NCBI GenBank assembly: GCA_947624935.1
Contig: CANQML010000001.1
Location: forward strand, 1 to 54,534
DNA: 54,534 nucleotides
DNA from: Candidatus Gastranaerophilales bacterium
Lineage (GTDB): Bacteria > Cyanobacteriota > Vampirovibrionia > Gastranaerophilales > Gastranaerophilaceae
Direction of reading: 5' to 3'
Notes under the pieces: generated by a model
What the model was told of the DNA's origin: nothing
The model's database searches: none
Seen by the model: only the letters and a program-made list of their open reading frames with translations
Position numbers and translations under genes: made by a program
Shown here: one piece after another, positions 6,324 through 54,534 of the stretch
How the letters are laid out: each line of letters opens with the position of its first letter
How positions within the stretch are numbered: the first letter of the stretch is position 1

Positions 6324-6695
6324 ATGTCTGATTTTATGTATTACAATATAAACCCAAAAAAAGAAACTACTTTTGATTGCGTTTGTAGAGCAATAAGCCT
6401 TGCAAGTGGTTTGCCCTATCTCACTACTTCGCGGTTACTTGACCTTGTATCGGAACATACGGGATATGATAGAATAACGCTTAAATCTTATTCTTACCTA
6501 TTAGAAAAGATATTATTATACCCCGTATTCTATTGTGATTATGAGGAAACCGTTGACGAGGTTATAGAAAAATACCCGCATAATACATTACTTATACGCA
6601 TAGACGGACATTTATTGTGTGCCGTGGCTTCTGTAATAACTGATTTGTGGGATAGCCGTGATAGATTAGTTACTTGCTATTGGATAGCAAAATAA
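6324..6695 (+). CDS. putative papain-fold cysteine peptidase-like protein
   Basis: Candidate Cys-His-Asp arrangement (FDCVCRAISLA ... IDGHLLCAV ... DLWDS). Assigned by motif recall only. Confidence 0.3.
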   Translation: MSDFMYYNINPKKETTFDCVCRAISLASGLPYLTTSRLLDLVSEHTGYDRITLKSYSYLLEKILLYPVFYCDYEETVDEVIEKYPHNTLLIRIDGHLLCAVASVITDLWDSRDRLVTCYWIAK

Positions 6696-6698
6696 CAC

Positions 6699-6727
6699 TT
6701 GACAATTTAAACTTTTTATTATACAAT
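6699..6727 (+). promoter_or_regulatory. near-consensus promoter TTGACA-17-TACAAT
   Basis: TTGACA at 6699..6704 and TACAAT at 6722..6727. Confidence 0.7.
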
Positions 6728-6753
6728 ATTATAAAAATTTATGGAGATAATTT

Positions 6754-7050
6754 ATGAATACTTATTTAACAAACTCATTAGATTTTTGCTGTGGCTTTAA
6801 CGGTGCAATCAATGACGAATTAACTATTGGTGAAAAAATTTTGCTTGTAAAAGAGGACGGCTCTGTATGTGAAACCTATGGCGATTACGAAGATGGAAAA
6901 ACTTATACCGCCAAAAAGTTTTGGGTTATAAGAAAATCTTATCGTGATTTAGCAAGGTTTGATACCAAAGAAAAAGCACAAGCCGAGTTTGACCGTATAT
7001 TAAAAGAGATTGGTAGCGAAAGCAAAGTAGTAGTAATTACAAACAAATAA
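6754..7050 (+). CDS. hypothetical protein (single-gene moron)
   Basis: Has its own promoter (6699) and terminator (7124). Confidence 0.55.
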   Translation: MNTYLTNSLDFCCGFNGAINDELTIGEKILLVKEDGSVCETYGDYEDGKTYTAKKFWVIRKSYRDLARFDTKEKAQAEFDRILKEIGSESKVVVITNK

Positions 7051-7123
7051 AATATAATATGGAAAGTAGCAAAAGTGATTTTGCTCTGCTGGCAAGTATG
7101 ATTTATTGTACTTGCACTTGATT

Positions 7124-7150
7124 AGGGTAGGTTATTCCTACCCTTTTCTC
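7124..7150 (+). terminator. intrinsic terminator
   Basis: AGGGTAGG-TTATT-CCTACCCT followed by TTTTCTC. Two further 7-bp hairpins precede it (about 7066..7083 and 7092..7116). Confidence 0.65.
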
Positions 7151-7206
7151 ATATTCAAAAAAATTAAAATATTTTCAAAAACTTTAAAAAAAGTATAGTA
7201 AAACTA

Positions 7207-7235
7207 TTGACAAGCGGTGTTTTAGGGCTTATAAT
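7207..7235 (+). promoter_or_regulatory. consensus promoter TTGACA-17-TATAAT
   Basis: TTGACA at 7207..7212 and TATAAT at 7230..7235. Confidence 0.75.
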
Positions 7236-7268
7236 AAAGGTACAAATTAAGCAAAAGGAGAATAAATA

Positions 7269-7457
7269 ATGGAATTAAGCGAAGAAATAATTGCTTTTAG
7301 GGCAAGATACAATATGAGCCAAAAGAAAATGGCAGAATTGTGTAATGTATCTTTTGTAACACTTTTCTACATAGAGAAAGGCAATGATTGTACTGATTTA
7401 ACAAGGTATAAGATTTTGCAAGCAATGGAAAAGTACGAAAGAGAACATATTGATTAA
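7269..7457 (+). CDS. XRE/Cro-type HTH transcriptional regulator
   Basis: MSQKKMAELCNVSFVTLFYIEKG is a typical HTH_3 core. Confidence 0.6.
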   Translation: MELSEEIIAFRARYNMSQKKMAELCNVSFVTLFYIEKGNDCTDLTRYKILQAMEKYEREHID

Positions 7458-7468
7458 AGGAGTGGGCT

Positions 7469-7756
7469 ATGGGTGATATTGATAGAGATAAATGGGCAAG
7501 CCTTTTTTATGTTCTTGATTTCGCAAATGAACAAGTAGTTAAGTTTAACAAAACAATAGCGGACATTACAAACAAAATACAACTTACTTCTATTGAAGAA
7601 ATAAAGCATAACGAAGAATACGAGCTTATGGAAAATGCACCGCAATTTGATATAAACCAAATAAAGTGGTGTATTAAAATGGGTATAAGACTAACAAAAA
7701 GAGAAAAGGCATACGCTGTATTATATTTGGGTTATGACCTTAAAGACTTAAAATAA
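7469..7756 (+). CDS. hypothetical protein
   Basis: RBS AGGAG, within the operon. Confidence 0.5.
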   Translation: MGDIDRDKWASLFYVLDFANEQVVKFNKTIADITNKIQLTSIEEIKHNEEYELMENAPQFDINQIKWCIKMGIRLTKREKAYAVLYLGYDLKDLK

Positions 7757-8217
7757 TGAATAGCTGTACTAATAAACAATGTTCTTTATACGGCAAATGC
7801 AATTTAGGCACTAATTGTATTCTGTATAAAGGGAAAGCAAAAGGCAATAAATATCACGCCGAAAAATGCGAATATAAGGGCGAAATCTTTGATAGCCAAA
7901 AGGAAAGAGATAGGTATATCGAATTAACCTTGCTTTTAAAAGCTGGTGAAATAACCGATTTACAAAGGCAAGTTAAATACGAGCTTATTCCTGCTCAAAG
8001 AGAGGCTGATACCATAGGTAAAAGGGGCGGGGTAAAAAAAGGTAAGCTAATCGAGGCGGGAGTGGGCTATGTTGCTGATTTTGTTTACAAAGATAAAAAC
8101 GGCAATCTTGTTGTAGAGGACGTAAAAGGTTATAGACAAGGCGGTGCATACGCCGTGTTTACGATAAAACGAAAACTATTTTTGTATAAGTATGGAATAA
8201 GAATAAAAGAGGTGTAA
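7756..8217 (+). CDS. DUF1064-family nuclease-fold protein (putative Holliday-junction resolvase)
   Basis: Motifs KYHA..GEIFDSQKERDRYIEL...GEITDLQRQVKYEL...YVADFVY...VVEDVKG match the DUF1064 pattern as recalled. Confidence 0.6.
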   Translation: MNSCTNKQCSLYGKCNLGTNCILYKGKAKGNKYHAEKCEYKGEIFDSQKERDRYIELTLLLKAGEITDLQRQVKYELIPAQREADTIGKRGGVKKGKLIEAGVGYVADFVYKDKNGNLVVEDVKGYRQGGAYAVFTIKRKLFLYKYGIRIKEV

Positions 8218-8219
8218 TT

Positions 8220-8492
8220 ATGAAAAGAAAAATACTTATTGTTTTAATGGCATTAAGTCTATGTTTACTATGTGGCTGTGCCTCAACTGCAAGGGCTTGT
8301 AAATCTTGTAGTAGCGATATGAACGGCGGGCTTGATAGAATAATCAATGTTTATTCACTTGACGGACAGCTGATAGCAACCTACGAGGGGTTTGTAGACA
8401 TAGACGATAACGATAACGGCTCAATTATGTTTGACCTTAACGGCAAACGTTATGTATATTATAATGCAATAATTGAAGTAATTGAAAAATAA
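8220..8492 (+). CDS. lipoprotein
   Basis: Signal peptide MKRKILIVLMALSLCLLCGC with a lipobox-like LCGC. Confidence 0.55.
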   Translation: MKRKILIVLMALSLCLLCGCASTARACKSCSSDMNGGLDRIINVYSLDGQLIATYEGFVDIDDNDNGSIMFDLNGKRYVYYNAIIEVIEK

Positions 8493-8507
8493 AAAGGAGA
8501 ATTAACA

Positions 8508-8750
8508 ATGTTTAAAAGAAATAAAAACCACTGCACACAACAAAATTACAAATCATCATTTGTTATAAAGATATTTTATCCGACACACGAGTGGACGGAC
8601 TATTTTAACACAGAGGATAGTTGGAATGAAACTTTTGATAAAATCAATAAACTTTTTCAAGAAAAAAACAATGAGGATAAAATTATTGTTTTAGACAACG
8701 TAATTCATAATTTATCGCGCGCAGACGTGGTACTTAAATGTAAAGAGTAA
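8508..8750 (+). CDS. hypothetical protein
   Basis: AAGGAG RBS. Confidence 0.5.
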   Translation: MFKRNKNHCTQQNYKSSFVIKIFYPTHEWTDYFNTEDSWNETFDKINKLFQEKNNEDKIIVLDNVIHNLSRADVVLKCKE

Positions 8751-12503: not shown

Positions 12504-12577
12504 AGAGGTGTAGCTCAATGGTAGAGCGCGCGGCTTTGACCCGTGATATGTAAGTTCAATTCTTGCCGCCTCTGCCA
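12504..12577 (+). tRNA. tRNA-Gln (anticodon UUG), CCA encoded
   Basis: Hand-folded cloverleaf. Acceptor AGAGGUG/CGCCUCU, D arm GCUC-AAUGGUA-GAGC, anticodon arm CGCGG-CUUUGAC-CCGUG, T arm GUAAG-UUCAAUU-CUUGC, discriminator G. Confidence 0.85.
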
Positions 12578-12739: not shown

Positions 12740-12815
12740 GCTTCAATAGCTCAATCGGCAGAGCAATCGCCTTGTAAGCGATAGGTTGCAAGTTCAAATC
12801 TTGCTTGAAGCTCCA
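12740..12815 (+). tRNA. tRNA-Thr (anticodon UGU), CCA encoded
   Basis: Hand-folded cloverleaf. Acceptor GCUUCAA/UUGAAGC, D arm GCUC-AAUCGGCA-GAGC, anticodon arm AUCGC-CUUGUAA-GCGAU, T arm GCAAG-UUCAAAU-CUUGC. Confidence 0.85.
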
Positions 12816-20840: not shown

Positions 20841-21416
20841 TTACCTATTCTCCTTTAATATTCTTGATACAGTAGAGGGTGATATTCCTAACTCTACCGC
20901 TATTTCTTTACCCATTTTACCTTGTGAAGATAAATCTAAAACTCTATCTGATAAGGCTTTGCTTTTGTTTGGTCTGCCGAGAATTATGCCCTCGTCCTTT
21001 TTCGCGGCAAGAGCTTGCCTTGTACGGTCTGCTATCAAGTCGCGCTCGAATTGTGCAAATGCACTCATAATATGGAATACAAGCGCAGACATAGCGTCCA
21101 TTTTATTATCACCGCCTACTGTTAGGTTTTCCTTTAAGAATATAACCTTTACTTTTTTATCTCTAACAAGCAAGTTAGTTGTATCTATCAAGTCTTGTAC
21201 ACTTCTTGCCATACGGCTCATACTTTCAAAATACACCTCATCACCCGCTTGCAAGACTTCAAGCAAGTTATTAAATTCTTCTCTTATACAAGCCTTTTTA
21301 GTTCCGCTTATTTTTTCCTCAAACAGTCTGTCAAGCTGATAATCTTTCAAAACATATTCTTGCCTTGTGTATTCCTGTTTGTCGGCTACGGACACTCTTA
21401 TATAGCCGTATCTCAT
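20841..21416 (-). CDS. small serine recombinase (resolvase/invertase family) with C-terminal HTH
   Basis: MRYGYIRVS (catalytic Ser), ...SRMARS..., ...FAQFERDLIADRTRQAL..., and C-terminal GKEIAVELGISPSTVSRIL. ATGA overlap with the upstream gene. Confidence 0.9.
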   Translation of the reverse strand: MRYGYIRVSVADKQEYTRQEYVLKDYQLDRLFEEKISGTKKACIREEFNNLLEVLQAGDEVYFESMSRMARSVQDLIDTTNLLVRDKKVKVIFLKENLTVGGDNKMDAMSALVFHIMSAFAQFERDLIADRTRQALAAKKDEGIILGRPNKSKALSDRVLDLSSQGKMGKEIAVELGISPSTVSRILKENR

Positions 21417-21883
21417 TTTAATATCTCCCATACTTTATTTGTTTTGAAATCTATTAAATAATCCCTGTTATTTTCGGCTGTTCTTGTTTTTGCAAGTTTT
21501 TTGTTTGCCACATTATGCCACCAAAAATAATCGCCATAACCTTGCCACCGTAACGATATAAAATCATTAGTCAATCGGTCAAAAAAGTTAAACTCCCAAA
21601 ACAAATCATTTGCCCATTTTTCATATCTTGCAAAACCCATAAACATTTTCTTTTGAGTTGGCAAAACATAAAATTCTTCTTTTGATTTACCTTTCCCCCT
21701 TGTGCCGTAGAGTTTAAGCTCATTAAGATTGGGCAGTATAATACCATAAACATTATTAAGTGTTTTTTGTAAATCAACATAGTTATACCAGCAATACAAA
21801 TCAATTTCTTTTTCTGTTTGCCCCATTACTTTTGCAGAATATCTGCCAAGTAGTTTGCGTACATATATAAGTTCATATCTCAT
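21413..21883 (-). CDS. hypothetical Trp/Tyr-rich protein
   Basis: Operon context only. Confidence 0.5.
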   Translation of the reverse strand: MRYELIYVRKLLGRYSAKVMGQTEKEIDLYCWYNYVDLQKTLNNVYGIILPNLNELKLYGTRGKGKSKEEFYVLPTQKKMFMGFARYEKWANDLFWEFNFFDRLTNDFISLRWQGYGDYFWWHNVANKKLAKTRTAENNRDYLIDFKTNKVWEILK

Positions 21884-22323: not shown

Positions 22324-23367
22324 TTATTTATCATATTTTCCTGTTATACAGTTAAGAATTTCTCTATCGCTAATATTCGCGCATTGACAACGGAAAAGTG
22401 TTGTTGAGTTCGGCAATTTAATATAGCTATCGCCCTTGCCTAAAAGTTCCGCACCCTTGCCGCAGTCAATAACGTTCATTGAGTGCCTTGCGTTTGCCGT
22501 AGTCAAGCAAACCTTTGTAGGCAGATTATATTTAATCAAGCCTGTTACAACGCTTGCTCGCGGGTCTTGCGTTGCCACAATAAGGTGTATGCCCGCCGCT
22601 CTACCCTTTTGTGCTATCCTCACGATATATTCCTCTACTTCGTTTTTAGAGGTCATCATAAGGTCGGCTAACTCGTCTATAACAACCACAATTCTATTGC
22701 CGTCATACTTCTTTAACCCTTTTGCTTGCATTTCACCATACCGCCGTTCCATTTCGTCAACGGCGATAGAAAGCCACTCTAACGCCTCGCTATTATCTTT
22801 TGCAACCTTATATATGCGTTTGTGTATATCTTGCTCATACAAGCCAAATTCCGCGCCTTGTTTAGGGTCTATTAAAATTAAACTCGCAGTTGAAAAACAT
22901 AACAGCTCCATAATAAGACTGTTTAGCAAACAAGATTTACCACTTCCTGTTGACCCCGCTATAAGTAAGTGTGCCGCTTCGTCCATATTTGTAACAATAA
23001 AATCGAAGTTACCTTTGCCGAAAGAAATATAGCCTTTTTGCCTTGCCGCTTGTTCGCCGTCTTTATCTTCGGCAATAGCTTTTTTAATAGCGTGTGCGCA
23101 ATCACCGCACGATATAAATTGCCTGTCGCAGTTACGCGATAATCGGAAAGTGCCGCCCTCTAACGGCTCATAGTTATAGCCAGCAAAAACGCGCATTTCC
23201 TTTATCACTCTATTAAACGCAGAAAGGGATACGGCAGAAATGATTTTAAACTCAAAATTTCCCGCTTGCGGTGAAAAGTAACAGCGTAATAATTCAACTT
23301 GTATTCCCGCCCTTGCAAAATAGTTAGTCAAATTTACGCTCATTTGCTCTATTGTTATATCGCCCAT
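22324..23367 (-). CDS. FtsK/SpoIIIE-family DNA translocase ATPase (motor domain only, no TM)
   Basis: Walker A GSTGSGKS, Walker B VVVIDELADLM, and IVATQDPR. Confidence 0.85.
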   Translation of the reverse strand: MGDITIEQMSVNLTNYFARAGIQVELLRCYFSPQAGNFEFKIISAVSLSAFNRVIKEMRVFAGYNYEPLEGGTFRLSRNCDRQFISCGDCAHAIKKAIAEDKDGEQAARQKGYISFGKGNFDFIVTNMDEAAHLLIAGSTGSGKSCLLNSLIMELLCFSTASLILIDPKQGAEFGLYEQDIHKRIYKVAKDNSEALEWLSIAVDEMERRYGEMQAKGLKKYDGNRIVVVIDELADLMMTSKNEVEEYIVRIAQKGRAAGIHLIVATQDPRASVVTGLIKYNLPTKVCLTTANARHSMNVIDCGKGAELLGKGDSYIKLPNSTTLFRCQCANISDREILNCITGKYDK

Positions 23368-25303: not shown

Positions 25304-25404
25304 TTTGTTAAATCTCCTTTGCCTGTCATCATCAGTACGGGGCGGCAAACCCCCGCAGACGGGCAGAAAAAGCCCGTTTCGACTGTTTAATTAAATCACC
25401 CCCC

Positions 25405-25527
25405 TTATAAATACAGAAAATCGCCATTTTGCCAAACAATTTGAGAATAGCCGCGCCTTTTTAATCTCAAAATCGTAGAATTAGCGGGATATTGCCACAT
25501 TTTTTTACCTTTTGCGTAATAAGTCAT
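25405..25527 (-). CDS. small hypothetical protein (40 aa), not in ORF track
   Basis: GGAG RBS. MTYYAKGKKMWQYPANSTILRLKRRGYSQIVWQNGDFLYL*. Confidence 0.35.
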   Translation of the reverse strand: MTYYAKGKKMWQYPANSTILRLKRRGYSQIVWQNGDFLYL

Positions 25528-25644
25528 AATAATATACTCCTCTTTATGCGTTTAGTTTTGCCGTGTGCGGTCTTTGGACGCTCTCGGCGGACGCATTAAC
25601 GGCGGGCAAGCCGCCGCCCATCTGCTATAATTTCACCCCCTTTA

Positions 25645-25992
25645 TTATGCTAATGCCCTGTTTATAAGCTCGGCGCGCAATTCCGCAATCTTTTTATTTG
25701 CGCGTTCTTCCGCGCTTTTGTCGGATAAGTGCGCCCAATATTCTGCGATTGCATTTTCCGCTTCCTCTTCGAGGTCGTCATACTTTACGCGCGCGCCCGT
25801 TAAATTCCTATAACCTGTGCAAACACAAACGCCGCCGCCGATGTCGTAAGCGTCCCAATTCCAACCGTAAACGCCTTTGTTATAAGCGTAAGCATTTAAG
25901 CCGCGCAACAGATATTGCGCGCCGCAATAGCCTATTCTAATAACTTGCTTGTTTGTTGTTTCTAACTGTTTGTTTGTCAATTTGATTTTCAT
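25645..25992 (-). CDS. hypothetical protein (115 aa, GC-rich codons)
   Basis: AAGAGGG RBS before ATG 25992 (MKIKLTNKQ). Contains IRIGYCGAQYLL...GVYGWNWDAYD. Confidence 0.5.
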   Translation of the reverse strand: MKIKLTNKQLETTNKQVIRIGYCGAQYLLRGLNAYAYNKGVYGWNWDAYDIGGGVCVCTGYRNLTGARVKYDDLEEEAENAIAEYWAHLSDKSAEERANKKIAELRAELINRALA

Positions 25993-26087
25993 AATAAAAC
26001 CCTCTTTATAATTTATTTGCGGGCGGGCTTGCAACCGCCACCGCCGCATTAACCCCTTGCGGGGCTGCTCTGCGTTACAAATTTATT

Positions 26088-26219
26088 TTAATTATTTGTA
26101 CAAATACAAGCGATTAAATACACCGCGCGCGGGTTTTTTTCGTGCATTTCCCACGCGAGCGCGTCCGCCTCTTCAAATGTTTTCCCGCCCGCGAGCATTC
26201 CCGCGCTTTGCTCTACCAT
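26088..26219 (-). CDS. small GC-rich ORF, start ambiguous (43 aa from the ATG; the frame is open for 77 codons without a canonical start)
   Basis: MVEQSAGMLAGGKTFEEADALAWEMHEKNPRAVYLIACICTNN*. The upstream in-frame part reads ...YEFYCPSGNTFTFCAQCDKSAAAYARQ. Confidence 0.35.
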   Translation of the reverse strand: MVEQSAGMLAGGKTFEEADALAWEMHEKNPRAVYLIACICTNN

Positions 26220-26315
26220 TTGCCGCGCATACGCCGCCGCGCTTTTATCGCATTGGGCACAAAATGTAAATGTATTGCCACTCGGGCAATAAAATTCATA
26301 ATTGCCAAACGATAA

Positions 26316-26370
26316 CCGCCCCCCGAGTCAAGGTTAATTTGATTATAACACCGCCCGCCCCCCGTGTCAA
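26316..26370 (-). repeat. two copies of TTGAC(A/T)CGGGGGGCGG, 39 bp apart; the distal copy supplies the -35 of the leftward promoter
   Basis: Plus-strand ccgccccccgAgtcaa (26316..26331) and ccgccccccgTgtcaa (26355..26370). Confidence 0.7.
26342..26370 (-). promoter_or_regulatory. consensus promoter TTGACA-17-TATAAT for the leftward operon
   Basis: The reverse complement reads TTGACA cggggggcgggcggtgt TATAAT. Confidence 0.75.
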
Positions 26371-26419
26371 CCCTTTTATTATACTTTTTTTAATATTCTT
26401 TTAGTTTTTTTAATATGTA

Positions 26420-26437
26420 CACGCGCCCGCGCGCGTG
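26420..26437. other. GC hairpin CACGCGC-CCGC-GCGCGTG; the motif CGCGCCCGC occurs three times (26422, 26452, 26649)
   Basis: Read directly. GC islands sit inside an AT-rich intergenic region. Confidence 0.6.
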
Positions 26438-26506
26438 ATATAAATATCCTGCGCGCCCGCCCTGCTAACCCTTGCAGGCGTGGAAGGAGCCGCCCCGCGC
26501 CCCCGC

Positions 26507-26640
26507 TTTTTTCTTTTTATTTATTTTTCTTTTTTGTAAATTATTCAAAATTACTTTTTGTAATTTTGTACACTAAATAATTATGTAAATTATTCAATGT
26601 ATTGATATGATTATTTAATGATTTTTGTAAAAAAATAAAG
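26507..26640. other. extremely AT-rich tract (about 13% G+C by hand count) with TTTTGTA half-sites and a 13-bp direct repeat; DNA-unwinding-element candidate
   Basis: TTTTGTA at 26532, 26556, 26564 and 26623. GTAAATTATTCAA at 26536 and 26585. Confidence 0.45.
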
Positions 26641-26720
26641 TAACATATCGCGCCCGCACTCGCTCATTCTGTTTTTTCGTGCTTTTTATCCCGTCTAACC
26701 GATTTATAAAACGTTCATAT

Positions 26721-26749
26721 TTGAAATTTTGTTGATTTTTGGCTAAAAT
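26721..26749 (+). promoter_or_regulatory. candidate promoter TTGAAA-17-TAAAAT inside the gene-free hub
   Basis: TTGAAA at 26721..26726 and TAAAAT at 26744..26749. Confidence 0.45.
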
Positions 26750-26761
26750 ATGCCAAAATCA

Positions 26762-26785
26762 GGGCGGGAGGGGTGCCCGTGGGGG
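26762..26785 (+). other. canonical G-quadruplex motif GGG-C-GGG-A-GGGG-TGCCCGT-GGGGG; a second G block GGGGTGGGGG lies at 26806..26815
   Basis: Read directly. Four G3+ tracts with loops of 1, 1 and 7 nt. Confidence 0.6.
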
Positions 26786-26821
26786 CAAAGGTTGCGGATT
26801 TGAAAGGGGTGGGGGTAACCT

Positions 26822-26890
26822 CATACACTTACAATTTAGAAATTTGAATTTAGCTATTCACATACACTTACAAAATTAAAATTTCAATTT
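26822..26890. repeat. two imperfect 30-bp direct repeats (25/30 identical), period 39 bp
   Basis: CATACACTTACAATTTAGAAATTTGAATTT versus CATACACTTACAAAATTAAAATTTCAATTT. Confidence 0.7.
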
Positions 26891-26891
26891 C

Positions 26892-27203
26892 AAGTCTTTA
26901 TCAAGACTTTCATTTTAGTTTATGAGATTATTCGGTAAATCCGAATTATCTCTTTACTCACTTAAACTGACATAAAAGCTATAAAAGATTATCAGTATAT
27001 TGATAATGATAGGTAGTAATCATTTCAAAAACGCCGTTAGAGCTTATAATTAGCGTTCTAACGGGTTTTAGAATAAACTATGGGTAAATACACGGAAAGG
27101 CTAAATAAGGGTTTAGAAAGCAAATAAAAGCCTTTCCGAGAGAGTATAATTTTATTGGTGTTTTAGTGGTAAAATATTTCCTATAAAGATAGAAATAGGA
27201 AAA
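26892..27203 (+). other. run of six stem-loops, including a terminator-like one at 27034..27069
   Basis: Stems at 26892..26909 (7 bp), 26924..26952 (12 bp, 1 mismatch), 26988..27007 (7 bp), 27034..27069 (8 bp then GTTTTA), 27093..27138 (10 bp) and 27177..27202 (8 bp). Confidence 0.55.
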
Positions 27204-27221
27204 GGGTATTTTTAGAGAGCA

Positions 27222-27405
27222 TTTTGTAGTCTATGGTGTTTACAAAATAGGGGTAAAGTGGCATTTTTGTAGCCTGTACTGTTTACAAAAATTTTGTAAC
27301 CTACTGTGTTTACAAAAAGTATGATTTTGTAGCCGTGTGCGTTTACAAAATTTTTTCTGTGTAATAAAATTTATTTATAATTTTGTAGTTATTTTGTTTA
27401 CAAAA
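27222..27405. repeat. five 25-26-bp palindromic iterons TTTTGTA(G/A)-N8-9-GTTTACAAAA
   Basis: Copies at 27222..27247, 27265..27290, 27292..27317, 27325..27350 and 27381..27405. Confidence 0.85.
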
Positions 27406-27425
27406 TTGATTTAGTATGATATAAT
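27397..27425 (+). promoter_or_regulatory. promoter TTTACA-17-TATAAT whose -35 lies inside iteron 5
   Basis: TTTACA at 27397..27402 and TATAAT at 27420..27425. Confidence 0.55.
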
Positions 27426-27521
27426 GAATATACAGAGCAAGGACAGCCCTATTGCAAGGGGTTTCCGAGCGTTCCTGCGGATTACTTGCTTTGTACATTT
27501 TTGCTTGGGGAACGCAAGTTA

Positions 27522-28067
27522 ATGAAAAAGGTAACGAAATACATAAATGATACGCATAAGCCTGTACCGCTGTATGAGGGTGCGGACGGAGAGAAGTTGT
27601 TTGACGTGCCGCCGAACGGCGGTATGGCGAAGATATTTACGGAAGCGCAGATTAGAAGTCAAACGGCGTATGCAAGTAGAGTACAATACGATTGGAAGTT
27701 TATAAAGTGTATGGAAAATGAGCAAGAGATAATAATTCTGTTAAAAGACGACTTAAAGACTTTTTACGCTTTAACCGTAATGAAACATTTTCTGTTAAAA
27801 GATAGGAATATTTTAGTTAAAAATATAGTTAAGGACGGTAAAGAGCAAACAGTTAAGTTTACCGCTATTGATTTACAAGAGGCTTTGGGGTATAAGACGA
27901 GGCAAGCGGCAAGCAAGCATATTATGAAATTAAAGAGCTTGAATATAGTAAAGGGCATAAAGACAAAAGATTTCGGTTATGTTTTTGCTATTAACCCGAA
28001 TTACTATATGAACGGCACTTCTGTACCGAAAGAGATAAGTGAGTTATTCAACGAGGACAATAAATGA
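27522..28067 (+). CDS. winged-helix DNA-binding protein, putative iteron-binding replication initiator or regulator (RepL-like)
   Basis: wHTH-like LQEALGYKTRQAASKHIMKLKSLNIVKGI. It is the first gene after the iterons. ATG 27522 is preferred to the TTG at 27486. Confidence 0.4.
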   Translation: MKKVTKYINDTHKPVPLYEGADGEKLFDVPPNGGMAKIFTEAQIRSQTAYASRVQYDWKFIKCMENEQEIIILLKDDLKTFYALTVMKHFLLKDRNILVKNIVKDGKEQTVKFTAIDLQEALGYKTRQAASKHIMKLKSLNIVKGIKTKDFGYVFAINPNYYMNGTSVPKEISELFNEDNK

Positions 28068-34972: not shown

Positions 34973-35836
34973 ATGGCAGTATTTAAGGTACACAAAACAC
35001 AAAATTACACGGTAATGAGCAATTACCATTTAAGGGAAAAGAATATGAGTATGAAAGCAAAAGGCTTATTGTCTGTTATGCTTTCATTACCGCAAGATTG
35101 GGATTATTCTATTAGCGGACTTTGTGCGCTTGGCATAGAAAAGGAAACCGCTATAACCGCTATGCTTAACGAGCTTAAAGAGTTTGGTTATCTTGTAGTG
35201 CAAAAGATTTACCCGAATAAAGAAAACGGCGGTAGGATAGAATATATATATAATATCTACGAACAGCCCCAAAAACAAGAGGGTAAAAAACAAGGGTTAG
35301 AAAATCAAGGGCTTGTAGGTCAAGGGGTTGAAACACAAGGGGTAGAAGATATAGGTCTATATAATAATACTAATAAACAAAATACTAATGAACAAAGTAT
35401 TGATATAAATAATATATATATAAACGGGACAAGCAATAACCTTTTATCAGTCAATGAAGTTTTGGAATTAGCTAAAACTCATTGCCGAGTGCTTTATGAC
35501 AGATTTCAACGCAAGATAGACGAGAAAGGACAAGTCCATTTATATGACACTTTACAAAATGTTTTAGACGAGATAGGTAGGTATTACACTATTGAGCAAT
35601 TAAAAGAGCTGTTTATAAAGGCAAGTAAACTGTATTGTTCTACTCCAAACTATTCTAATCTTGACTTACTATGGCTGTTAAACAACTTGAAAAAGATAGA
35701 GGACACGCCTATTAGGGAAGGTACAAGCGGTGGCGATAATTCCCCCTCAAAGTTTACTGAAACTAAAACAGCAGAGGAGTTGGAATACGAAAAGCAATTA
35801 TACGAAAAGTTAAGTAGAGTAGGGAGAGTTGACTAA
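34973..35836 (+). CDS. replication initiator/organizer with N-terminal winged helix (RepA_N / DnaD-like)
   Basis: NYTVMSNYHLREKNMSMKAKGLLSVMLSLPQDWDYSISGL...LNELKEFGYLVV. Directly upstream of the helicase-loader-like ATPase. Confidence 0.55.
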   Translation: MAVFKVHKTQNYTVMSNYHLREKNMSMKAKGLLSVMLSLPQDWDYSISGLCALGIEKETAITAMLNELKEFGYLVVQKIYPNKENGGRIEYIYNIYEQPQKQEGKKQGLENQGLVGQGVETQGVEDIGLYNNTNKQNTNEQSIDINNIYINGTSNNLLSVNEVLELAKTHCRVLYDRFQRKIDEKGQVHLYDTLQNVLDEIGRYYTIEQLKELFIKASKLYCSTPNYSNLDLLWLLNNLKKIEDTPIREGTSGGDNSPSKFTETKTAEELEYEKQLYEKLSRVGRVD

Positions 35837-36726
35837 TGGAATACAGCTTAATTGATTTGATAAAGAAAGGGTTTACTAAAATCACCGCTGACGAAAGAGA
35901 ATATTACCTCACTCACTATATATCAACGGAAGAAAAGCAAATAGGCAAACCGATTTTTGAAATGACGAAAGAGGAAGAACTTGAATACGATAGGCTTTGC
36001 TTTAACAATAAAGCGGGAAACCTAAAAGGCTATGATTGCCCGATATGCAAGAATAAGGGCGAGATTATGGTGGTAAAGGACGGAATAGCCTATTACCCCG
36101 ACTGTTCTTGTATGAAAATCCGTAGGTCGCTTGCGAATATGGAAAATAGCGGGCTTGGCAATTTACTTAACATTTACACCTTTGACAAGTATAAATGCAC
36201 TTACGATTGGCAAAAACACGCTTATGAAAGAGCAAAAGCGTTTATTACAAGCGATAGCAATTTCTTTACAATGGCAGGGCAGTCGGGGACAGGCAAGACT
36301 ATGTTATGTACAGCGGTTGCAGGAGCTTTGTTAAAACAAGGCATAGAGCTTAAATATATGCTTTGGCTTGACGAGAGCATAAAGATAAAACAAGTGGTAA
36401 ACGACAATAAGCAATACGGGAGTATGATTGAAGAACTAAAAAATATACCTGCGCTTTATATAGACGATTTTTTGAAAACCGAAAAGGGCGGTGCGCCTAC
36501 TTCCGCTGATATACGGCTTGCTAATGAGATTATAAATTATCGCTATAACAAGTGTAGAGCCGATAAATCGCAAAGGCACATAACGATTATAAGCACAGAG
36601 TGGTTATTACCGCAATTAAACGAATTTGATAATGCGCTTGCGGGGCGAATATATGAATTATCAAAACCCGATTTCTTTATACAGATAACGGGAGCGGAAA
36701 AGAATTATAGGTTGAAAGATTTTTAA
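35836..36726 (+). CDS. DnaC/IstB-like AAA+ ATPase (helicase loader) with N-terminal Cys4 zinc finger
   Basis: Walker A GQSGTGKT, Walker B LYIDDF, and CPICKN...CSC. Confidence 0.75.
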   Translation: MEYSLIDLIKKGFTKITADEREYYLTHYISTEEKQIGKPIFEMTKEEELEYDRLCFNNKAGNLKGYDCPICKNKGEIMVVKDGIAYYPDCSCMKIRRSLANMENSGLGNLLNIYTFDKYKCTYDWQKHAYERAKAFITSDSNFFTMAGQSGTGKTMLCTAVAGALLKQGIELKYMLWLDESIKIKQVVNDNKQYGSMIEELKNIPALYIDDFLKTEKGGAPTSADIRLANEIINYRYNKCRADKSQRHITIISTEWLLPQLNEFDNALAGRIYELSKPDFFIQITGAEKNYRLKDF

Positions 36727-53313: not shown

Positions 53314-54534
53314 ATGGCAAGTTTTACGCCGAGTAAGAAAACGGCAAGTGATTTTAATAATAACACGAAATATGTTGATTACGACCCTGCATTAGGAATT
53401 ACAGGGGATAGTCCGCAAGCAGAAACGATAAACAATCTTGTTGAAAGCGCATTGTATACACAAGAGAGGGCTGATAGCGCGGCTCAAAGTGCGGCAAATG
53501 CTGAAAGTTCTGCCGATAACGCTAATTCGGCGGCAGAGGCGGCGCAAAAGACGGCGGACGGCAAGTATACATTACCGGCAGGCGGTATACCGGCAAGCGA
53601 TTTAAAAGGCGATATCCCGACCTCGAAGATAACAGGGCTTGCCACAGTAGCAACAAGCGGCGATTATAATGACCTGTTGCATAAACCTGCCGCATACTCG
53701 TTGCCAATTGCAACGTCGACCGTTCTCGGCGGCGTTAAGAGCTCCACAACAGGTACAGACGGCACAGATTATAACGTCCAGGTAAATGCAGACGGCACAA
53801 TGAAAGTCAATGTGCCCAGCCCTGATTTAAGCGGTTATGCGAGGCTTGACGGCACGCAAGAATTTACGGGTAAAAACACCTTTACTGCAAGCACGACGTT
53901 TACGGAAACGGACAATACCGGGAACTACACCAACATAGACGGTGCCTCGATTGGAGTGGTTTCTGATTATGGTGACATTGCAACATATATTACTTCTGAC
54001 GGTATAGAGATAAAAGCGGACAATGGTGAGACTAATACTGAATATCAAGCGACAGGTATAACTTATAATCACAACGATAATACCAATACTTTGTCTTTCC
54101 CCCAAAAAAGTGGTACGCTTTTTCTTAAAGAGGAATTTAAGGCGGCAGAAAAGGCTTTTATTAAATTTGAAGTCGGTGATTATTTTATTACAGGAAATAC
54201 AACTTCACCCGCCGCACGTTTTGGCGGTACTTGGGAAGAACTTCCGCAAGGCACCTTCCTTCGCGCAACAGGCACGAGCGGCGCGATTTCATCGGGTACT
54301 GCGACGGACGGCGGAAGCAATTCGCATAATCATGTTGTTGGTGCGCAAGACGATACAAGTGCATACGCAATTATGGATACGGGCATAGCAGTCATTGACG
54401 GTACTAATCAAAGAGGTGTTTTAACCCGTACATCCCAAGTTCACGGTTATTCGAGCGACCTATTTATGTTTATTGACAACGGGGCGGCAACGTTCCGTGA
54501 ACAAACAAATTCTCTCGATAGGGTTGTACAAGTT
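53314..54534 (+). CDS. tail fibre protein (5' part; continues to nt 149 through the circular junction)
   Basis: An Ala/Ser-rich coiled N-terminal region, then ...VGDYFITGNTTSPAARFGGTWEELPQGTFLRATG...GGSNSHNH, a fibre-tip/collar-like motif. No stop before the window end. Confidence 0.8.
   Translation, partial: MASFTPSKKTASDFNNNTKYVDYDPALGITGDSPQAETINNLVESALYTQERADSAAQSAANAESSADNANSAAEAAQKTADGKYTLPAGGIPASDLKGDIPTSKITGLATVATSGDYNDLLHKPAAYSLPIATSTVLGGVKSSTTGTDGTDYNVQVNADGTMKVNVPSPDLSGYARLDGTQEFTGKNTFTASTTFTETDNTGNYTNIDGASIGVVSDYGDIATYITSDGIEIKADNGETNTEYQATGITYNHNDNTNTLSFPQKSGTLFLKEEFKAAEKAFIKFEVGDYFITGNTTSPAARFGGTWEELPQGTFLRATGTSGAISSGTATDGGSNSHNHVVGAQDDTSAYAIMDTGIAVIDGTNQRGVLTRTSQVHGYSSDLFMFIDNGAATFREQTNSLDRVVQV
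54458..54534. repeat. 77-bp terminal overlap identical to 1..77
   Basis: Exact match. Confidence 0.95.

Follow-up and report, generated by a model that had tools for sequence, protein, structure and literature searches.

What is a noncoding stretch of more than 1 kb doing between two divergent operons of a phage? The question is raised by contig CANQML010000001.1 (assembly GCA_947624935.1, deposited as Candidatus Gastranaerophilales bacterium), which we analyzed over its whole length of 54,534 nucleotides (nt), referred to here as the window. At positions 26270 to 27521 lies a stretch that we call the hub, which an initial annotation, made from the sequence alone, had described as gene-free and as suggesting a combined replication origin, genetic switch, and noncoding RNA locus. 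Our analysis indicates that the hub is a new instance of a phage divergent control region, containing one new RNA motif supported by covariation and one conserved G-rich element. We consider it probable that this is the central divergent control region of the phage, which is uncultured and of gut type, with modules that are conserved and exchanged independently, and that it is not the main replication origin. The switch part of the earlier proposal holds, in that there are divergent promoters and that palindromes lying over -35 boxes change together with the winged-helix protein encoded downstream. The noncoding RNA part holds as well, at least one structured RNA, the leader at 27432-27521, showing strong covariation. 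The origin part is not supported on present evidence, given the GC skew, a separate replication module, the unphased palindromes, and an AT tract that is inherited independently.

Relatives of the phage and conservation of the hub

Exact-protein look-ups in ENA and Logan assemblies were the only source of relatives. No relative was found among INPHARED phages or PLSDB plasmids with either nucleotide or protein queries, searches of IMG/VR with the protein encoded at 27522 and with the terminase gave no match, and nothing similar was found in INPHARED, PLSDB, IMG/VR, or GTDB genomes. An 18-mer pattern, AAAGGGGTGGGGGTAACC, matched 19 IMG/VR contigs, 16 of them from one unrelated phage group and 3 isolated, with homologous flanks in 0 of the 19; a scan with the pattern CGCGCCCGCGCGCGTGATATAA gave no match. 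Close relatives are L001, L004, and L010, and diverged ones are L030, L033, L034/L035, L070, and L071 (terminase identity, 58 to 66%).

Aligned with these genomes, the hub appears as a mosaic of modules that are separately conserved and exchanged. Two segments, 26339-26890 and 26953-27138, are 83 to 97% identical in three independent relatives and have sharp mosaic breakpoints. Among the window, L001, L004, and L010, the blocks 26420-26443 and 26953-27140 are 90 to 96% invariant, compared with 5 to 21% in neighboring DNA; the AT tract, a promoter-like site, the G-rich element, and a pair of 30-nt repeats are 76 to 84% invariant, and variable cargo slots occupy 26084-26338 and 26891-26952. Homology to L004 and L010 ends abruptly at 27138-27140, right after a hairpin with a 10-bp stem, and returns within the 27522 gene at about 27720. 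The initial annotation had named three outcomes that bear on these alignments. Relatives might have shown the region to be unconserved filler, and they show instead conserved modules and mosaic breakpoints. They might have revealed conservation and covariation; blocks are conserved, and the leader covaries, but the G-rich element does not. Finally, the absence of a credible open reading frame (ORF) was borne out, since the longest ATG-initiated ORF in 26371-27521 encodes 51 amino acids on the minus strand, and neither it nor any other ORF is conserved in the diverged relatives. One correction concerns the interval itself, as the gene-poor leader of the leftward operon reaches further left, to about 26220.

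A structured leader RNA upstream of gene 27522

The best-supported new result is the 5' leader of gene 27522, which is a new RNA motif absent from Rfam. An alignment of seven sequences representing six distinct leaders (alignment A6: the window, L001, L030, L031, L032, L033, and L070) was folded by RNAalifold into a three-way junction. The structure tested on it consists of P1, P2, P3, the small P4 hairpin, and the pairing between the P3 and P4 loops. Standard pairs fill 89.5% of the cells of this structure, versus 30 to 48% when the partners are slid by 1 to 3 columns, and compensatory changes occur in 15 of 28 pairs; 0 of 500 shuffles came up to the observed value. L070 alone replaces P1 GCAAG/CUUGC with GUGAG/CUCAC and P2 AGCCG/CGGUU with AGCGG/CCGUU, while its P2 loop changes from UUGCAA to UAGCUA, again palindromic, and its P3 loop from the CGUUCC type to AUUGCC, matching the GGCAA upstream of its AUG. 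The junction nucleotides GGAC, GUUU, and AUUAC are invariant; this invariance is the one riboswitch-like sign in the leader, and the gene context points to no ligand.

Each of the six distinct leaders has a P3 loop with full complementarity to 5 to 7 nt upstream of the AUG, where a Shine-Dalgarno element would be expected; the gap to the AUG is 5 to 8 nt in five of them and 1 nt in L032, and shuffled P3 loops match the ribosome-binding region equally well in 1 to 19% of trials per sequence. The leader thus has both a structure supported by covariation and a pairing over the ribosome-binding region directly upstream of the start codon. Covariation shows the predicted fold to be a real four-helix structure with a loop-loop pseudoknot. 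By pairing with the ribosome-binding region, the hairpin loop would be expected to throttle translation, and the leader, which would thereby lower expression of the gene, may respond to a factor.

The leader gave no match when cmscan was run against Rfam 15 on 25500-28000 at E <= 1 and on the whole window; the same Rfam scan, which had been suggested as a check, found no match anywhere inside 26270-27521 and located ribozymes only just to the left of it. A covariance model built from the leader alignment (R1) retrieved only its training copies from 262 kb of related DNA. The leader core pattern occurs in none of the IMG/VR or GTDB genomes, and its 31 matches in metagenomes are all chance hits without the rest of the motif.

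Proposed operators, promoters, and the winged-helix protein

Upstream of the leader lie the elements that had been called five palindromic iterons overlapping the rightward promoter. The five palindromes and the promoter overlap are there, but they are not phased direct repeats; they are inverted and irregularly placed, with start-to-start spacings of 43, 27, 33, and 56 bp. They are confined to the hub, where a strict pattern finds four (0.65 expected by chance, four reached by 0 of 100 shuffles). The right arms of palindromes 4 and 5 supply the -35 hexamer TTTACA of both tandem promoters, so that the palindromes lie over the core promoter of the presumed regulator's own gene, as in an operator array. 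L030, L033, and L070 have an equivalent promoter ahead of their leaders.

Every member of the winged-helix family found at the hub position has its own array of repeated sites upstream. The window and L001 have five copies of TTTTGTA-N12-TACAAAA, and L030 has five of TTGTAAAG...CTTTACAA; the half-sites are of the ATGTTA/TAACAT type in L033, the last one over the -35 box, AAGTTA/TAACTT in L070, and a repeated (TT)CATAAA in L004 and L010. The window and L001 share one cassette (sites, promoters, leader, and gene), which in L004 and L010 has been swapped as a unit for a homologous 181-amino-acid (aa) family member with 23% identity and different repeats. The homologues in L030, L033, and L070 are 25 to 60% identical, each with its own repeated half-site. 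Because two palindromes contain the -35 boxes of the tandem promoters, the 27522 protein would presumably shut off its own transcription, and autorepression by promoter occlusion, with the protein as the likely binder, is the simplest reading. The cassette as a whole fits an autoregulated DNA-binding protein under both transcriptional and translational control.

The protein itself belongs to a rare family (49 clusters at 50% identity among 1.84 billion representatives). Its best structural matches, all weak, are to the winged-helix domains of MarR, ArsR, CodY, TubR, replisome-organizer, and RepL proteins, and its viral structure neighbors, also weak, are enriched in replisome organizers, RepL, and replication initiator A. 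It has no Pfam match at E <= 0.1 and fails to reach the 20.3-bit cut-off of Pfam RepL (PF05732). Of 33 remote family members, eight have some match to RepL, and a single one, P0147, exceeds the cut-off (23.4 versus 20.3 bits), with a match over the winged helix and C-terminal tail. NCBIfam and PHROGs offered no informative name for the family. The gene is present in integrase-less relatives (the window, L001, L004, L010, L033, and L070) and absent from L034, L035, and L038, which carry an integrase and CI/Cro.

The C-terminal winged-helix half recurs in two forms, a 123-aa protein of its own (81% identical) and a fusion with a T5orf172/MUG113 domain in front of it (92%), at L004 10001-10372, L010 10001-10744, and L032 640-1362, directly after the diverged 181-aa homologue. 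Those phages lack the palindromes yet retain all four TTTTGTA half-sites of the AT tract, which could therefore be an additional target of the C-terminal winged-helix domain. The other product proposed to bind the hub, that of gene 20841, is a small serine recombinase/invertase and not an obvious hub-binding regulator.

The G-rich element and the hairpins of the middle segment

A candidate promoter at 26721 followed by a canonical G-quadruplex motif had been noted in the middle of the hub, and both are present. The motif (26762-26785) is the only one of its kind in the genome on either strand, and the promoter-like site, P_G (26721-26749), scores 10/12 in the promoter scan. The near-palindrome TTCATATTTGAA that overlaps P_G has one copy in the genome; a palindrome also stands upstream of the G-rich element in relatives, as TTCATATATGAA in L071 and in near-perfect form in L001 and L070. 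The G-rich element is kept in nine relatives, with terminase identity down to 58%, each time directly 3' of a promoter-like site.

RNAalifold proposes a possible G-rich stem of 9 to 11 bp (26770-26778/26813-26822), in which 92% of cells are paired versus 34 to 62% in slid controls; the columns of the stem show no covariation among the nine sequences. One pair is G-U in all nine and would be a mismatch on the minus strand, which favors a plus-strand over a minus-strand RNA. By reading, four tracts of at least three G residues are retained in all nine, with a central loop of 22 to 30 nt, and a quadruplex with a long central loop is therefore equally possible; the first two G tracts of the canonical motif are not retained in the distant relatives. 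The hairpin 26770-78/26813-22 would compete with such a quadruplex, and the two are equally compatible with the pattern of conservation. In L033 (5949-6512) and L071 (421-984), a promoter and a gene for a 187-aa protein come next after the G-rich element; in L033 this protein has a metalloprotease-like HExxH motif (HELAH). Because this gene takes the place after the element there, the element accompanies whichever gene is first in the rightward direction rather than the winged-helix gene.

The 30-nt direct repeats that had been noted 39 bp apart start at 26822 and 26861. The stem-loops listed after them also exist and fold better than shuffles, with z = -3.0 for 26756-26960 and z = -4.8 for 26995-27145. 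In the variable slot, where the terminator scan lists 26930-26946, L001 and L010 have a different, stronger hairpin and U run, and L004 and L071 share an ATTCGG/CCGAAT hairpin; each relative has a hairpin and U-rich sequence 3' of the G-rich element, in sequences unrelated to one another. We read 26756 to about 26958 as a candidate noncoding transcript or promoter-proximal cis element for rightward transcription.

The block that follows (26967-27006) is 90% invariant among the four genomes, and its palindrome is single copy in the genome. Its promoter-like box is recognizable in L030, L034, and L070, where the -35 hexamer is TTGACA; the weak -10 of the window was not scored by the promoter scan. 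For the two strong hairpins at 27034-27138, 0 of 200 shuffles folded as well (z = -4.8), identity is 91 to 93% in L001, L004, and L010, and the mosaic breakpoint falls directly after them. Clear small transcription units, from promoter to terminator, can be read in the hubs of L030 and L033.

The left edge

The -35 hexamer of the leftward promoter, P_L, lies, as had been observed, inside one of two 16-nt copies of CCGCCCCCCG(A/T)GTCAA, at 26316 and 26355 and 39 bp apart. The -35 and a -10-like hexamer are retained in L001, L004, and L010, with a different spacer; these three have no counterpart of the second TTGAC...GGGGGGCGG copy, which is thus a window-specific duplication. The A/T tracts at 26371-26419 may be UP-element-like.

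To the right of P_L, the three copies of GCGCCCGC that had been counted occur nowhere else in the 54.5 kb (chance expectation, 0.65; three reached in 1 of 100 shuffles). The first sits in the GC hairpin at 26420, also described before (CACGCGC-CCGC-GCGCGTG, 26420-26437), which is the most conserved block of the hub, with 96% of its columns invariant among the window, L001, L004, and L010. In the C-rich island, which has no Rfam match, the flanks are conserved and the center has been swapped in L004 and L010, yet by reading it still forms a hairpin (CCUGC/GCAGG versus CUUG/CAAG). The idea that the GC islands are diverged ribozymes was rejected for the known classes, no ribozyme model matching them at E <= 1.

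The AT tract had been reported as a segment of low G+C content with four TTTTGTA half-sites and a 13-bp direct repeat; the composition and half-sites stand, and the repeat is 17 nt long. It is the lowest-GC 134-bp window of the genome (runner-up, 20.1%), and 9 of the genome's 22 copies of TTTTGTA are within the hub. Among the four genomes 77% of its columns are invariant, and the first 90 bp or so are nearly identical. The GC hairpin, the C-rich boxes, and the AT tract are confined to the subclade of the window; the T-rich tract alone recurs at the same place in L033 and L071. The Logan contigs L030, L070, and L071 start next to or within the extreme AT tract, which may reflect either a drop of coverage in DNA of 13% GC or a physical genome end.

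Table 1. Features of the hub and its surroundings, in window positions
Feature	Position	Strand	Details
Hammerhead_II	25317-25384	-	53.2 bits (gathering score 37)
Weaker twister-like match	25567-25626	-	26.7 bits
Twister-P5	26023-26074	-	51.2 bits (gathering score 37.6)
Second -35/spacer box copy	26316-26331		CCGCCCCCCGAGTCAA; repeat D12; no -10 after it
Leftward promoter P_L	26342-26370	-	TTGACA, 17-nt spacer, TG-n-TATAAT; promoter scan 12/12, extended -10
A/T-tract block	26371-26419		Abuts P_L -35; two tandem 20-mers (D10); 65% of columns invariant in four relatives
C-rich island	26450-26507	+	72% G+C; second GCGCCCGC box, internal hairpin, CCCCGCGCCCCCGC run, then T run
Extreme AT tract	26506-26641		12.7% G+C; plus strand pyrimidine-rich; four TTTTGTA; 17-nt direct repeat (D11)
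Third GCGCCCGC box	26650-26657		
Near-palindrome over -35 of promoter-like P_G	26714-26749	+	TTCATATTTGAA; P_G is TTGAAA, 17-nt spacer, TAAAAT
G-rich element	26762-26822	+	GGGGURCCCGYGGGG, 25-35 variable nt, GGGYGGGGGUWACCU
30-nt direct repeats	26822-26890	+	CATACACTTACAA...; repeat D5; 84% of columns invariant; three copies in L001, L004, L010
Variable slot	26892-26952	+	Hairpins 26892-26909 and 26924-26952, U-rich after each; candidate terminators of G-rich transcript
Promoter-like box with palindrome	26967-27006	+	CTGACA, 17-nt spacer, TATCAG; overlapped by perfect palindrome TTATCA-N6-TGATAA
Two strong hairpins	27034-27138	+	27034-27064 (then GUUUU) and 27093-27138; candidate small RNA/terminator pair
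Five palindromes	27221-27248, 27264-27291, 27291-27318, 27324-27351, 27380-27406		TTTTGTA-N12-TACAAAA; proposed sites of the 27522 product
Upstream tandem promoter	27342-27370	+	TTTACA-17-TAAAAT; 10/12
Downstream tandem promoter	27397-27425	+	TTTACA-17-TG-n-TATAAT; 11/12
Structured 5' leader	27432-27521	+	About 90 nt, between downstream promoter and start codon
Leader P1	27436-41/27485-90	+	
Leader P2	27445-49/27459-63	+	Palindromic loop UUGCAA
Leader P3	27465-69/27476-80	+	
Leader P4 and loop-loop contact	27470-75/27509-14	+	P4 is a small hairpin abutting AUG; P3 loop (27470-75) pairs with P4 loop (27509-14) over Shine-Dalgarno-like G run
Gene 27522	27522-28067	+	181-aa protein; beta-rich N-terminal part, C-terminal winged helix; AlphaFold pLDDT 77
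Replication-initiation/DnaD-like gene	34973-35836		
DnaC-like loader	35836-36726		

Neighboring RNA elements and genome context

The ribozymes of Table 1 lie in the leftward operon. They bracket a gene for a 115-aa protein (25645-25995), which may as a result be excised as an mRNA of its own. All relatives examined have Twister-P5 at the corresponding position, and twister-P3 or hammerhead matches are present in some of them as well. On the minus strand, the first 250 nt or so of the leftward transcript (26088-26310) are GC-rich and hold a zinc-ribbon-like frame (…FYCPSGNTFTFCAQCDK…) with no ATG, GTG, or TTG before a Met at 26219; this frame could represent a gene in decay or a gene whose start is unusual. 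In L001 and L010 the same slot is occupied by small genes that are unrelated. Distant relatives have RNA-repair or RNA-chaperone genes as the first rightward genes of the hub: in L038 this is a Ro60/TROVE gene with two sub-threshold YrlA (Y-RNA-like) matches and a tRNA upstream (6446-8585), and in L034 (6964-8139) and L035 (5227-6402) it is a gene for an RtcB RNA ligase. In this phage group the hub looks like a hotspot for RNA-centered cargo. Y-RNA-like RNAs of the kind seen in L038 were considered for the window and dropped, as it contains neither a YrlA match nor a Ro60 gene.

The contig is a closed circle, because bases 1-77 are an exact copy of 54458-54534 (a 77-nt direct repeat, or assembler overlap), which makes the complete phage genome a circle of 54,457 bp with 36% G+C. 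Genes point rightward apart from a leftward block at 17.9 to 26.3 kb, which encodes a small serine recombinase (20841-21431), an FtsK-like ATPase (22324-23367), helix-turn-helix (HTH) proteins, and numerous small ORFs. An invertible segment under a serine invertase was considered and dropped, no long inverted repeats flanking the hub or the leftward block. The rightward arm, starting at 27522, encodes DNA methylases, a 680-aa large terminase, an SPP1-type portal, structural proteins, and replication proteins. Two phage-encoded tRNA genes, tRNA-Gln(UUG) at 12504-12577 and tRNA-Thr(UGU) at 12740-12815, are on the plus strand. One terminase homologue is labelled as a Roseburia metagenome-assembled genome, from which a Lachnospiraceae-type gut bacterium is a reasonable inference for the host.

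A model of the hub and its alternatives

Taken together, these features suggest how the hub may work. At the left edge, the consensus promoter would fire the leftward operon, whose transcript would carry the self-cleaving ribozymes. At the right edge, dimers of the 27522 winged-helix protein would bind the five palindromes and shut off their own transcription, and the four-helix leader would add a translational brake. The space between the edges would comprise AT-rich DNA flanked by conserved C-rich boxes, the promoter-proximal G-rich element that is kept throughout the phage group, and one or two short noncoding units ending in hairpins; the most likely role of these central segments is to act in cis, as RNA or DNA signals, on rightward transcription. 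Several points weigh against this model. It gives the AT tract, the C-rich boxes, and the 30-nt repeats no specific role, and the promoters of the middle segment are weak matches (10/12 or unscored). The paired columns of the G-rich element lack covariation, so that an RNA fold there is hypothetical, and binding of the 27522 protein to the palindromes is suggested by linkage and co-variation in a handful of lineages. The weak resemblance of the protein to RepL and replisome organizers means, further, that the palindromes could serve replication as well as autoregulation.

This last point leads to the question of an origin. The GC skew, which had been suggested as a means of placing it, flips at the hub only where gene orientation flips, and the hub lacks the arrangement of an iteron origin, in which phased direct repeats in one orientation adjoin an AT-rich unwinding element. 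AT-rich inverted repeats (35236-35260 and 35404-35422) and tandem 15-mers (35366-35395) are instead found inside the initiator gene, where origins of this kind usually lie, and the replication module at about 35 kb is a better origin candidate than the hub. It is nonetheless possible, if rather unlikely, that the hub is the plasmid-type replicon of a non-integrating phage-plasmid, in which the 27522 product would be a RepL-like initiator, the palindromes origin and autoregulatory sites, and the AT tract an unwinding element, and in which the G-rich transcript might prime an R-loop. The RepL matches of 8 of the 33 family members, one of them above the curated cut-off, and the weak enrichment of replisome organizers, RepL, and replication initiator A among viral structure matches speak for this, as do the genome's most extreme AT tract, its sole G-quadruplex motif just 3' of a promoter, and the small serine resolvase and FtsK-like ATPase of the leftward operon. 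The winged-helix gene also occurs in integrase-less relatives and is absent from L034, L035, and L038 with their integrase and CI/Cro, and there is a precedent in integrase-less mycobacteriophages, whose prophages replicate like plasmids via RepA or a noncoding RNA (PMC7157519). Yet the window protein has no Pfam family, the RepL signal covering only a generic winged helix and tail; the palindromes are spaced irregularly over -35 boxes and are not phased direct iterons; and the AT tract lies 580 to 900 bp from them and is conserved in L004 and L010 despite the swapped palindromes and first gene. The G-rich element persists with three different types of replication genes (in L070 and L071 it and the T-rich tract accompany DnaB-like genes), a complete DnaD-like/DnaC-like module with repeats of its own is present at about 35 kb, and L071, in the stretch seen, has neither a winged-helix gene nor an integrase. 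A related proposal, which we find doubtful, makes the leader a riboswitch-like sensor, with its invariant junction and a loop capable of kissing dimers, that would set the level of a RepL-like protein and decide between maintenance and replication, with the G-rich element as a second cis-acting RNA of the same switch.

Three further accounts reassign individual parts of the hub. The G-rich element, with its partial two-fold symmetry (GGGTRCCC and GGTWACC), might be a cos/pac packaging signal 3 to 5 kb upstream of the large terminase gene and not an RNA at all, which we think quite improbable. Its sequence is conserved without covariation, its sub-motifs are palindromic, its position upstream of the terminase gene is fairly constant in all relatives, and three independent Logan contigs (L030, L070, and L071) start less than 200 bp upstream of it; those starts are equally explained by loss of coverage in the adjoining tract of 13% GC, however, and full assemblies are circular or permuted with differing starts (the window, with its 77-nt terminal overlap, L004, L005, and L006). 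The invariant G-U pair and the upstream promoter favor a plus-strand RNA, and no small terminase gene is adjacent. A centromere role for the palindromes, with the 27522 protein binding them as a partition adaptor of the TubR or another type, would suit the TubR winged-helix structures among the PDB matches, the clustering of several sites, and a phage without integrase. It is highly unlikely, as the matches are weak and generic for winged helices, no TubZ, ParA, or ParM-type motor gene is adjacent, and the overlap with -35 boxes together with a structured translational leader indicates expression control. Scarcely any credence is due to the view that 26371-27140 is nonfunctional spacer or decayed cargo between two promoters. 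No known RNA or protein family maps to this interval, and the two cargo slots, 26084-26338 and 26891-26952, are truly variable; against this stand the invariance of 26420-26443 and 26953-27140 relative to neighboring DNA, the conservation of the G-rich element in spite of terminase identities of 58 to 66%, and predicted folds that are better than those of shuffles.

Comparison with known systems

In uncultured gut phages, control regions have hardly been studied, and the hub gives three concrete handles on them. The leader, at about 90 nt, is small enough for direct biochemical testing. The cassette variants are natural candidates for orthogonal pairs of regulator and operator that would allow a test of specificity co-evolution. 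For the G-rich element and AT tract, the candidate roles are antitermination, priming, packaging, and nucleoid protein binding. The phage group as a whole, with its ribozymes and, in relatives, RtcB, Ro60, and Y-RNA-like genes, is promising for the study of RNA processing and repair in phages.

With clusters of twister and hammerhead ribozymes the locus shares a leftward operon in which Twister-P5 and Hammerhead_II score above the Rfam gathering thresholds; here, though, the ribozymes lie outside 26270-27521, and within that interval the GC islands have no ribozyme match at E <= 1. Rep-iteron systems, RepL (PF05732), and the mycobacteriophage origins (PMC7157519) resemble it in having a winged-helix protein beside presumed sites over its own promoter, an extreme AT tract in the same hub, noncoding units nearby, and integrase-less relatives. 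They differ in that the hub sites are inverted and not helically phased, the window protein falls below every Pfam threshold, the AT tract is distant and independently inherited, and a separate phage-type initiator and loader are encoded.

The lambda-type early control region comes close in its architecture of divergent promoters, several palindromic sites over promoter hexamers, a regulator gene directly 3' of the regulated promoter, and an operator and regulator that are swapped together like an immunity module. Unlike the CI/Cro HTH proteins of lambda-type regions, the candidate binder of the hub belongs to a rare unnamed winged-helix family. The five sites of the hub are on one side only, its promoters are about 1 kb apart with conserved noncoding modules between them, and the integrase-bearing relatives hold a separate CI/Cro module elsewhere, without this cassette.

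Promoter-proximal cis-acting RNA and R-loop elements include the HK022 put antiterminator RNAs, ColE1 RNA II, and the mitochondrial CSB II G-quadruplex. The G-rich element of the hub has no sequence or structural similarity to these and no covariation, but like them it stands right after a promoter-like site, is followed by terminator-like hairpins, has AT-rich DNA in its vicinity, and keeps four G tracts. Leader pseudoknots and translational operators that sequester the Shine-Dalgarno sequence are known from the phage T4 gene 32 leader and from the preQ1-II and SAM-II riboswitches. The hub leader departs from them in combining a three-way junction with a separate small hairpin through a loop-loop contact, in its lack of an Rfam match, and in its P2 loop, a conserved 6-nt palindrome (UUGCAA; UAGCUA in L070). 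It is like them in being the 5' leader of a phage DNA-binding-protein gene, in the tertiary pairing over the ribosome-binding region, and in a pattern of evolution that preserves the junction nucleotides and alters the helices through compensatory changes.

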